From an uncultured virus (IMG/VR IMGVR_UViG_2563367026_000003) (taxonomy: Duplodnaviria; Heunggongvirae; Uroviricota; Caudoviricetes), in the IMG/VR virus record IMGVR_UViG_2563367026_000003: a stretch of 64,000 nt of DNA; one strand, given 5' to 3'. Positions 26,012-26,844 of this stretch are shown piece by piece. Every line of letters begins with the position of its first letter. The stretch's first letter is position 1. The notes under the pieces were generated by a model, which was given only the letters and a program-made list of their open reading frames with translations, searched no databases and had not been told where the DNA came from. Position numbers and translations under genes: made by a program.

Positions 26012-26100
26012 AAAAAAAGACCAGATGAATTAACATCTGGCCAGCCGGATTGGTTACCGGAAATATGATTTTAAGCCGGATTGGTTACCGGAAATTTATA
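26012..26100 (-). ncRNA. Putative repeat-containing small RNA (candidate RNA antitoxin)
   Basis: TTTACT-17-TATAAT promoter, two identical 22-mers, 9-bp stem plus U7 terminator. Confidence 0.6.
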
Positions 26101-26139
26101 TCTTGATTATAATAGATTAACGATAAAAAGTAAAGATAA

Positions 26140-26844
26140 TTATGATAAAATGTTAGCTTTCATAAAATCTTCTATAATTTTTAAAGTTTCTTCATTGAAA
26201 GATATATGGCCAGTTGGATCGTAATCATTAAGTGTGCTTATTCTTTTTTTACTGATAGTGATAACTTGAGATGGAATTGCATAAGTTTGTTTGCCTACAA
26301 ACCTTTCGTAACGCTCAATTATTTTTGCAAGTTGCATATAATTATTTTCAATCTCATCAAGTTCTTTTTCGATTGCTGGATTTAAGTTTTTTACTTTTGT
26401 GGATCTTGCGTGCATTTCTTTTATTCTATCCAAATCGAATCGTAAAGTTTTGTGGTCAGTTTTCATTTTTTCTAAAGCTTTTAGTATTAAATTCTCTTGT
26501 AATTTTAAAGAAAATTTGGTGTCTTTTGAAGTAAGTGGAACTATAGTAATTAGCTCATTGCGTTTGTTGTCATTTTTATTTAAAACGACGCAAAAATGAT
26601 TCCCTGAGAATTCAGAACCAATGTTAACACCAAGTTTAGCGTATACAATAGTACCTCTTGGATACACTTTAAAGTTTTTTTGGTTAGTTAAGGTTGTTTC
26701 ATTTTTAAAAATTATTGATTTTGTAAAAAGCCAGTCATCCAAATATTTAAATTTGAATTTTCCGCTATTGCAAACCTCTTCAAAGTTATTTACAGCTTTT
26801 AATATTTTATCTTTGCTACTTTTTTTGGTGGAATTTCTTTCCAT
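26140..26844 (-). CDS. PemK/MazF-fold putative endoribonuclease with helical insertion
   Basis: RGTIVYAKLGVNIGSEFSGNHFCVVL, IVPLTS and QVITISKKRI. Confidence 0.8.
   Translation of the reverse strand: MERNSTKKSSKDKILKAVNNFEEVCNSGKFKFKYLDDWLFTKSIIFKNETTLTNQKNFKVYPRGTIVYAKLGVNIGSEFSGNHFCVVLNKNDNKRNELITIVPLTSKDTKFSLKLQENLILKALEKMKTDHKTLRFDLDRIKEMHARSTKVKNLNPAIEKELDEIENNYMQLAKIIERYERFVGKQTYAIPSQVITISKKRISTLNDYDPTGHISFNEETLKIIEDFMKANILS

Follow-up and report, generated by a model that had tools for sequence, protein, structure and literature searches.

The 64,000-nucleotide stretch of DNA analysed here (the window) is an uncultured virus record (IMG/VR IMGVR_UViG_2563367026_000003; Caudoviricetes) that includes the left-hand end of a Staphylococcus aureus prophage of the hlb-converting (Sa3-int) type. 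The minus-strand order in this region is truncated sphingomyelinase, tyrosine integrase (int), a small-RNA unit, an open reading frame (ORF) of 234 codons (ORF234), a 55-aa ORF (orf55) and a cI-type repressor (Table 1). The subject of this analysis is the pair formed by ORF234, which encodes a protein of the PemK/MazF type, and the small RNA that starts just past its stop codon, a pairing that recurs in staphylococci, their phages and more distant Bacillota, and that represents a candidate toxin/RNA-antitoxin module.

Table 1. Features of the ORF234 locus and of a related element in the window
Feature	Position	Strand	Details and basis
Truncated sphingomyelinase frame	24028-24852	minus	
Tyrosine integrase (int)	24909-26036	minus	frame of 375 aa as ORF call; likely start ATG 25949 behind GAGGAGGG, 346 aa
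Second terminator-like hairpin, GGGTAGCCCGCCTACCC with T-rich tail	25982-25998	minus	just upstream of the int ribosome-binding site; terminator scan
Small-RNA intrinsic terminator	26012-26042	minus	9-bp stem, 6-nt loop, U run; terminator scan
Small RNA, ~86 nt, Sau-63-like variant, putative RNA antitoxin	26014-26099	minus	Rfam RF02394 match; fold z -4.27
Hairpin repeat unit 2, 22-mer	26043-26064	minus	identical to unit 1, 31-nt period; exact match
Hairpin repeat unit 1, 22-mer	26074-26095	minus	exact match
SigmaA-type promoter of the small RNA	26106-26134	minus	TTTACT (26134), 17 nt, TATAAT (26106)
ORF234, putative toxin	26140-26844	minus	ORF list; Pfam PF02452; PHROG 1412; AF2; Foldseek; VIA-align
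orf55, 55-aa ORF	26984-27151	minus	phrog_1176, function unknown; 140 nt upstream of ORF234
cI-type repressor (HTH + S24)	27350-28069	minus	
Orphan element with one related hairpin, outside the prophage	16610-16730 (hairpin 16625-16646)	plus	

The promoter of the small RNA agrees with the consensus at 10 of 12 positions and begins 5 nt past the ORF234 stop codon, with the predicted RNA start (26099) 7 nt past the -10 box. As a class, promoter-like sites are not enriched in the region (5 found versus 7.5 expected); terminator-like sites number 4 versus 0.4 expected. The RNA consists of two units, each with an unpaired AUUU(C) stretch followed by a CCGG-UAACCAAU-CCGG hairpin, and then the terminator (GGCCAGATGTTAATTCATCTGGTC and a T run, 26042-26019). 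The 22-mer ATTTCCGGTAACCAATCCGGCT occurs twice as an exact match; with up to 3 mismatches allowed, the window contains three matches, a number not attained in any of 100 shuffles. In its predicted fold (-25.8 kcal/mol, z -4.27), the 93-nt strand forms two hairpins of 4 bp each and the terminator, a stability that none of 200 shuffles equalled. Exact matching, scans and folding thus bear out the promoter, the two 22-mers and the stem with a U-run terminator that had been noticed in an earlier, sequence-only reading of this locus. That reading had passed over the second terminator-like hairpin, the likeness to the S. aureus RNA Sau-63 and the third related hairpin on the plus strand. The int frame as called overruns both terminators and reaches into the small RNA; with the likely start at 25949, the RNA unit does not overlap the int coding sequence.

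The product of ORF234 matches the Pfam family PemK_toxin (PF02452) over residues 63-166 (E 6.9e-9; 36.3 bits versus a curated cut-off of 23.1), the only Pfam family found at E <= 1, and this domain is present in 16 of 16 near homologues; PHROG 1412 is matched at E 7e-73. In the AlphaFold2 (AF2) model (mean predicted local distance difference test score, pLDDT, 80.3), a MazF core is preceded by an N-terminal helical extension (~residues 1-55) and split by a helical hairpin at ~115-187 (helices 119-150 and 156-180), so that coordinates, domain match and modelled helices all agree with the PemK-like minus-strand ORF with a helical insertion that had been described from the sequence. The best Foldseek matches of the model are the MazF proteins of S. 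aureus, Bacillus subtilis and Escherichia coli, with TM scores (target) of 0.64-0.72, and VIA-align superposes it on MazF/Kid with Z of 9.9-11.6 and root-mean-square deviations of 2.3-2.8 Å over 96-101 of ~105-118 residues. On this model, ORF234 is predicted to have the MazF/Kid fold. The kinship earlier proposed with the fold shared by ToxN, Kid and MazF holds for MazF and Kid; ToxN-type chains are not among the matches listed by Foldseek and VIA-align, a distant kinship being possible.

The family of ORF234 comprises 707 clusters at 50% identity with E <= 0.001, and 245 with E <= 1e-10. Its 22 invariant residues are clustered in the motifs GxNxGxExSGNHF, PxxS and ISKxR, and include H83 and S106, which we take to be candidate active-site residues. 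Searches of the ORF234 region gave only a chance-level Cas6 match (E 0.032) with the defence models of PADLOC-DB 2.0 (2023) and nothing informative with NCBIfam. Family members go by discordant labels, namely 'antitoxin mazE-like' in RefSeq and PHROG (phage records including NC_022758 and NC_007064), and, in other records, 'PemK/MazF family toxin', 'repressor protein' and 'pathogenicity island protein (SaPIn2)'. The 'antitoxin' label looks wrong because the family has a toxin-type domain by both profile and fold.

The small RNA resembles Sau-63, a known small RNA (sRNA) of S. aureus. The Rfam model sau-63 (RF02394) matches 26099-26014 across model positions 1-98 with 51.7 bits (E 7.5e-8), against a gathering score of 100, and by this comparison the window RNA appears to be a homologous variant of sau-63 that is not a member by the Rfam cut-off. 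Shared are the 5' hairpin CCGG-UAACCAUU-CCGG (CCGG-UAACCAWU-CCGG) and the terminator GGYCAGAUG...CAUCUGGYC, which is near-identical in the other Staphylococcus loci of the family and similar in canonical Sau-63. In the window RNA, however, the middle hairpin is absent, the 19-nt central segment has shrunk to 6 nt, and a duplicate of the first hairpin stands where Sau-63 has a distinct third one (UCAGC...GCUGA). The resemblance extends to the gene upstream of Sau-63, SA0378, which belongs to the same family as ORF234 (40% identity), and the two pairs have the same layout of stop codon, promoter, RNA and terminator, one in an Sa3-int prophage, the other in the chromosomal island SaPIn2. As far as these sequences tell, the ORF234/RNA module and the chromosomal SA0378/Sau-63 pair are paralogues.

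Sau-63 of strain N315 is given in passages of PMC3053349 as an RNA of ~100 nt at 436958-437055, validated by Northern blot. Passages of PMC3386247 equate it with RsaM and Teg146, place it between SA0377 and SA0378, call it highly expressed and describe it as a product of processing from the long 3' untranslated region (3'UTR) of SA0378. Further passages report a 16-fold increase in human serum (PMC4752604) and list it among the sRNAs most induced in cystic fibrosis (CF) sputum, where it was called 'uncharacterized' in 2026 (PMC13556194). A literature search returned no function of Sau-63/RsaM/Teg146, no published link between it and a PemK-like gene, and no link of either this RNA or the PemK-like family of ORF234 to an RNA antitoxin. 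The initial statement that the system is not a described one accordingly stands for the association of gene and RNA and falls for the RNA itself, a relative of a known sRNA.

A search of 86 Staphylococcus genomes with the sau-63 model yielded 13 loci spread over 12 genomes. Three of these loci exceed the gathering score. Nine of the 13, including all 3 canonical ones, lie directly 3' of an ORF234-family ORF on the same strand, with canonical Sau-63 ~30 nt past its 40%-identical ORF234 homologue. Phage 92 and 9 of 9 Staphylococcus homologue loci have an RNA promoter whose -35 box overlaps or abuts the stop codon of the ORF; in all nine loci, an unpaired stretch of the AAUUC type opens the RNA and a hairpin comes next. 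In phage 92, the ORF234 homologue (44% identity) is followed by an RNA of other sequence but the same plan, with the promoter TTGAAC-17-TATATT, the hairpins GCCGC/GCGGC and GUCGC/GCGAC (one compensatory change) and a terminator; the GGGTAGCCCGCCTACCC hairpin comes next, ahead of a serine recombinase. The IMG/VR copies of the phage 92 type have an open frame in 57 of 57 cases and an almost unchanged RNA in all 56 with enough downstream sequence.

More widely, a promoter-driven RNA of 1-3 short GC hairpins and a terminator was found 20-50 nt past the stop codon at 68 genome loci, from taxa that include Staphylococcus, Gemella, Streptococcus, Granulicatella, Carnobacterium, Lactobacillaceae, and Erysipelotrichales-like and mollicute-like metagenome-assembled genomes; the S. 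equi phage Javan178 has the same gene-RNA plan. The repeat sequences are clade-specific across the 68 loci, with base pairing retained. The 130 nt past 62 family genes have a mean fold z of -4.0 and contain at least three hairpins in 46 of 62 cases; for comparison, 158 non-coding regions past other ORFs in the same loci have a z of -1.5 and reach that number of hairpins in 35 cases. The nominal p-values of this comparison (8e-18 for fold z and 1e-12 for hairpin count) overstate the difference because the loci are related. The ORF234 family and its downstream RNA form a conserved pairing, and the ORF with its downstream repeat RNA, first noticed as one unit in the window, recurs as such at 9 of the 13 Staphylococcus loci, in phage 92 and in distant Bacillota.

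Within one clade (group B, 15 loci), both stems vary in sequence while pairing is kept (for instance, GGCC/GGUC, GAGC/GCUC, GAAC/GUUC, GGUU/AACC and GGAA/UUCC), with several G.U pairs, on the gene (sense) strand. Stem variation with preserved pairing and sense-strand G.U pairs points to an RNA made in the direction of the gene rather than a double-stranded DNA site. A conserved unpaired motif, CAAAG in group B (AACAAAG / AAUCAAAG) and AUUC in staphylococci, precedes each hairpin, so that the repeated unit comprises motif and hairpin.

The repeats could nevertheless be envisaged as double-stranded DNA sites, operators or recombination-directionality sites that regulate int, given that two identical CCGG-N8-CCGG palindromes lie 31 bp (three helical turns) apart upstream of this gene. 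We consider such a role very improbable. Of 54 phage records that share the flanks of the window, only 4 (three phages) contain ORF and repeats, whereas in phi13, phiNM3 and other phages with Sa3 int the match is limited to the start of int, and the repeats are missing. Conversely, the same cassette precedes several int genes, a serine recombinase included, and among IMG/VR copies the identical cassette stands before at least four different int 5' ends. The sequence-only reading had named an association of the repeats with Sa3 int regardless of the PemK gene as the finding that would turn the repeats into int-regulating sites; the distribution shows no such association. Across the family, a recombinase is the next gene downstream in 14 of 56 loci; in the other 42, as well as at the chromosomal Sau-63 locus, no recombinase follows. 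Furthermore, a DNA site would leave unexplained stems that vary freely with pairing kept and G.U pairs confined to one strand, and the homologous RNA has been detected by Northern blot, according to passages of PMC3053349.

The terminator-like hairpin between the small RNA and int marks the probable junction of the cassette and lies outside the core module. The GGGTAGCCCGCCTACCC hairpin, its T-rich tail and the GCCAATTTTGAGGAGGGA that follows are kept ahead of several unrelated integrase genes of both tyrosine and serine types. Contigs assembled from RNA-seq of other strains part from the window at 25967-25970, which coincides with the GGGTAGCCCGCCTACCC hairpin region, and contigs from two studies track the window over 25970-27191 and diverge beyond. 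The GGGTAGCCCGCCTACCC/GCCAATTTTGAGGAGGGA region is likely to be a module junction at which cassettes are exchanged. On the other side of the cassette, orf55 accompanies it in staphylococci and is not conserved across the ORF234 family.

Elsewhere in the window, two further matches exceed Rfam gathering scores: the Staphylococcus sRNA S35 (106.8 bits; 19644-19862, minus strand) and, inside the prophage part, a Listeria rli28-type RNA (94.6 bits; 63247-63426, plus strand).

A protein partner of ORF234 was sought among its neighbours. Pfam scans found no antitoxin of the MazE/PemI, AbrB or ribbon-helix-helix (RHH) type next to ORF234, and orf55 has no Pfam match at E <= 0.1, only phrog_1176. In a set of 70 family loci, the largest cluster of upstream ORFs covers 12, including the window and phage 92, and, from the neighbouring annotations, probably consists of cI-like repressors; an orf55-type ORF is upstream in 4. 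A same-strand ORF lies close upstream in 43 of 68 loci, and none of the 17 small upstream ORFs tested, orf55 included, matches an antitoxin family in Pfam. No protein partner is conserved across the ORF234 family, and the lack of a MazE/PemI-type neighbour, as first noted for the window alone, extends through the Pfam scans of these small ORFs.

A protein without a partner might do without one altogether. ORF234 could be a self-contained sensor-effector in which the N-terminal helices or the inserted helical hairpin serve as an internal inhibitor or as a sensor of phage, the RNA being a mere terminator or insulator for int or the neighbouring genes. Fused toxin-antitoxin defence proteins carry such built-in parts, and the ~55 and ~70 extra helical residues around the MazF core, the PHROG label 'antitoxin mazE-like' and the presence of two terminators between ORF and int in prophages all agree with this explanation. 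An insulator, however, needs neither a dedicated promoter nor covarying extra hairpins before the terminator; moreover, the RNA is retained in the 42 of 56 loci that have no recombinase downstream, and RNA copies persist without the gene. This makes a self-contained ORF234 quite unlikely.

The RNA might also act on the gene instead of the protein, repressing ORF234 translation in trans by pairing with its 5' region in the manner of type I systems. Type I RNA antitoxins are common in S. aureus prophages; the RNA described here, though, is on the same strand as ORF234 and does not overlap the 5' end of its mRNA. The duplex energies of RNAs with the 5' regions of their own ORFs (mean -24.2 kcal/mol) are no better than those of non-cognate combinations (-23.9 kcal/mol; standard deviation 5.8), and the median rank of the cognate duplex is 22 of 50. 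Antisense pairing with the ORF 5' region was rejected as a candidate for lack of a cognate signal, and there is very little to be said for a type I-like mechanism.

Natural variation bears on the relationship between gene and RNA. The ORF234 type has 23 copies in IMG/VR: an intact ORF goes with two repeats in 21 of them, and a broken ORF with one repeat in the other 2; phage phiST9-C (L099, 1501-2205) is a third one-repeat record, with an ORF234 pseudogene. These three records (L099, L120 and L121, the phiST9-C lineage) form one clade and share a 31-nt deletion that removes one repeat unit; as the units are identical, the loss cannot be assigned to the first or the second. The ORF lesions differ: codon K122 is a stop in L099 and L120, whereas L121 has codon 122 intact and a frame disrupted at two A7 runs, by a deletion in one and an insertion in the other. 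A common RNA lesion combined with differing ORF lesions suggests that, in this clade, the change in the RNA preceded the loss of the ORF, the order that an antitoxin predicts.

The RNA also occurs alone. Of the 13 sau-63 matches in Staphylococcus genomes, 4 have no family gene, one of these retaining a 27-residue C-terminal remnant. The RNA region is matched by 47 phage records, 43 of them over the two hairpins only. Two of the records were inspected, those of phages 92 (3915-4072, minus strand) and phiNM2 (442-497). In both, the hairpin element occupies the interval from the amidase gene to attP, where it follows the amidase terminator and an extended -10 box; it is joined to another structured domain, and no PemK-like gene adjoins it. 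The plus-strand element of the window outside the prophage (Table 1) has the hairpin CCGG-UAAUCAAU-UCGG, with 2 mismatches to the 22-mer, followed by a structured 3' domain and a terminator, both of which have homologues in the amidase-side element of the two phages. It matches no Rfam family at E <= 1, and no relative of ORF234 was found near it. Toxin-antitoxin families usually include antitoxin copies without a toxin gene, and RNA copies without the gene would fit the asymmetry typical of such pairs. Phages are known to escape the ToxIN system through phage-borne ToxI-like repeats (pseudo-ToxI); by analogy, the orphan phage RNAs could be decoys for PemK-like proteins of hosts or prophages.

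Among known systems, the cassette resembles the type III toxin-antitoxin systems (ToxIN, CptIN, TenpIN; AbiQ), with which it has in common a Kid/MazF-class protein beside a short repeated non-coding RNA, the lack of a protein antitoxin, the location in mobile elements and the occurrence of gene-less RNA copies in phages. In type III systems, the repeats are upstream of the toxin, under one promoter and with a terminator between them, whereas in the ORF234 cassette they are downstream and have their own promoter, an arrangement found in every homologue locus inspected. The toxin of a type III system cuts the repeat precursor and is inhibited through binding of the resulting units. On the reading preferred below, the module would work like type III, but of two features that define the class, the upstream shared-promoter RNA is absent, and a ToxN, CptN or TenpN toxin is not recognised among the Pfam and fold matches listed for ORF234. 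With the type II systems MazEF and PemIK, the cassette shares the toxin fold and the Pfam family; it differs from them in the lack of a MazE/PemI gene, in having a conserved RNA neighbour in place of a protein, and in the extra ~70-residue helical hairpin insertion and ~55-residue N-terminal extension of ORF234.

Another RNA of Bacillota, the Rfam pemK motif (RF02913), was named for its proximity to pemK-annotated genes. It has no match in the window (E <= 10), in 17 + 9 family loci or in 5 family genomes. The motif itself, with its conserved core GATAATGATACTTCC ... GGAGGTGAAATTCCTATG, has 14 matches in 11 of 151 genomes, none with an ORF234-family gene nearby; the 8 of these loci that were inspected adjoin recombinase and sigma-70-like genes of integrated elements. 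The identification of the cassette RNA with the pemK motif was rejected on both grounds, the lack of a model match and the absence of the ORF234 family from the loci of the motif.

The preferred interpretation of the pairing is that ORF234 and the downstream RNA constitute a toxin/RNA-antitoxin module in reversed order, with a MazF-family toxin, and we give it about an even chance of being correct. In such a module, ORF234 would be a MazF-fold RNA-binding and probably RNA-cutting protein, and the RNA would be over-produced from its own promoter just past the ORF234 stop codon, with read-through from the ORF possibly contributing. Each unit of the RNA (unpaired motif plus GC hairpin of 4-5 bp) would act as a pseudo-substrate lodged in the RNA groove of a single protomer, the two units serving a MazF-like dimer. 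When the supply of RNA drops, be it through phage shut-off of host transcription or through loss of the element, the free protein would halt growth. We infer that ORF234 is toxic, that the RNA binds it directly and in this stoichiometry, and that the pair plays a role in defence or addiction; processing of the RNA to 31-nt monomers and abortive infection, as envisaged in the sequence-only reading, would be part of the same scheme. The cassette lies within the lysogeny module (int, RNA, ORF234, orf55, cI) and therefore would be expressed in lysogens.

Several observations weigh against this interpretation. With respect to the protein, the best PDB profile match of ORF234 to an mRNA interferase has an E of 0.27, the remaining matches being coiled-coil noise, and the invariant His83 presumably occupies the place of the catalytic Arg of MazF, so that ORF234 may bind RNA without cutting it. 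A protein antitoxin may exist in subgroups of the family, orf55 included, given ~20 loci with a small upstream ORF of unknown family. The RNA, for its part, is unlike the known type III antitoxins in that it lies downstream and consists of 1-3 simple hairpins that often differ from one another. The same hairpin type is found beside proteins that are 35-40% identical while the 44% homologue has another type, which leaves cognate specificity unclear, and S. rostri combines a single hairpin with an open frame, which speaks against a strict need for two units. The frameshifts of L121, located in A7 runs, could be sequencing errors, in which case the ORF may have been inactivated in one event, not two. 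This stretch of the window is present in RNA-seq contigs from 20 runs of 6 studies, but these are no proof of transcription and give no ends, strand or level. Finally, other chromosomal staphylococcal PemK proteins, of a different subfamily, are described as inactive in passages of PMC11915791.

The RNA and the protein could also be partners without the RNA being an antitoxin: the protein might process, stabilise or deliver a regulatory sRNA, or the hairpins might be a 3'UTR feedback element by which the protein regulates the mRNA that encodes it. The staphylococcal RNAs contain unpaired UUCC(C) stretches similar to the seeds of other Rsa RNAs of S. aureus, and conserved synteny fits such a partnership as well as it fits an antitoxin. 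The origin of Sau-63 from the SA0378 3'UTR and its recovery with RNase III (passages of PMC3386247), together with its regulator-like induction in serum (PMC4752604) and CF sputum (PMC13556194), point in the same direction. Nevertheless, the unpaired motif is not C-rich in other clades, group B among them, so that a common target-pairing seed is unlikely; an RNA with its own promoter is more than a 3'UTR; and the broken ORFs of the one-repeat lineages, along with the orphan RNAs, are a better fit to toxin-antitoxin asymmetry. On balance, a partnership of this kind appears unlikely.

The toxin/RNA-antitoxin interpretation can be extended from the window to the family as a whole, though here it becomes a tentative proposal on which we remain doubtful. 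The cassettes would then represent a fourth widespread RNA-antitoxin (type III-like) class in Bacillota, characterised by a MazF-family toxin with an insertion and a downstream hairpin RNA with its own promoter; Sau-63 would be the antitoxin of SA0378, and the orphan copies, beside the lysis genes of temperate staphylococcal phages and, on the chromosome, at 16.6 kb in the window, would be decoys that neutralise the toxin of a host or of a resident prophage.

If the module is what we propose, it would be a new RNA-antitoxin family that differs from the known ones in gene order, RNA architecture and its MazF-family toxin, and it would explain the numerous 'solitary PemK' genes that the prophages of Gram-positive bacteria contain and that are now mis-annotated. 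If the RNA neutralises the protein, Sau-63, a strongly infection-induced orphan sRNA, would gain a testable function and a partner, SA0378. The orphan RNAs of many staphylococcal phages would become candidate counter-defence elements. As a part of the lysogeny module that hlb-converting phages carry, and mobile among prophages with different integrases, the cassette may shape phage-phage exclusion and prophage stability in a major pathogen.

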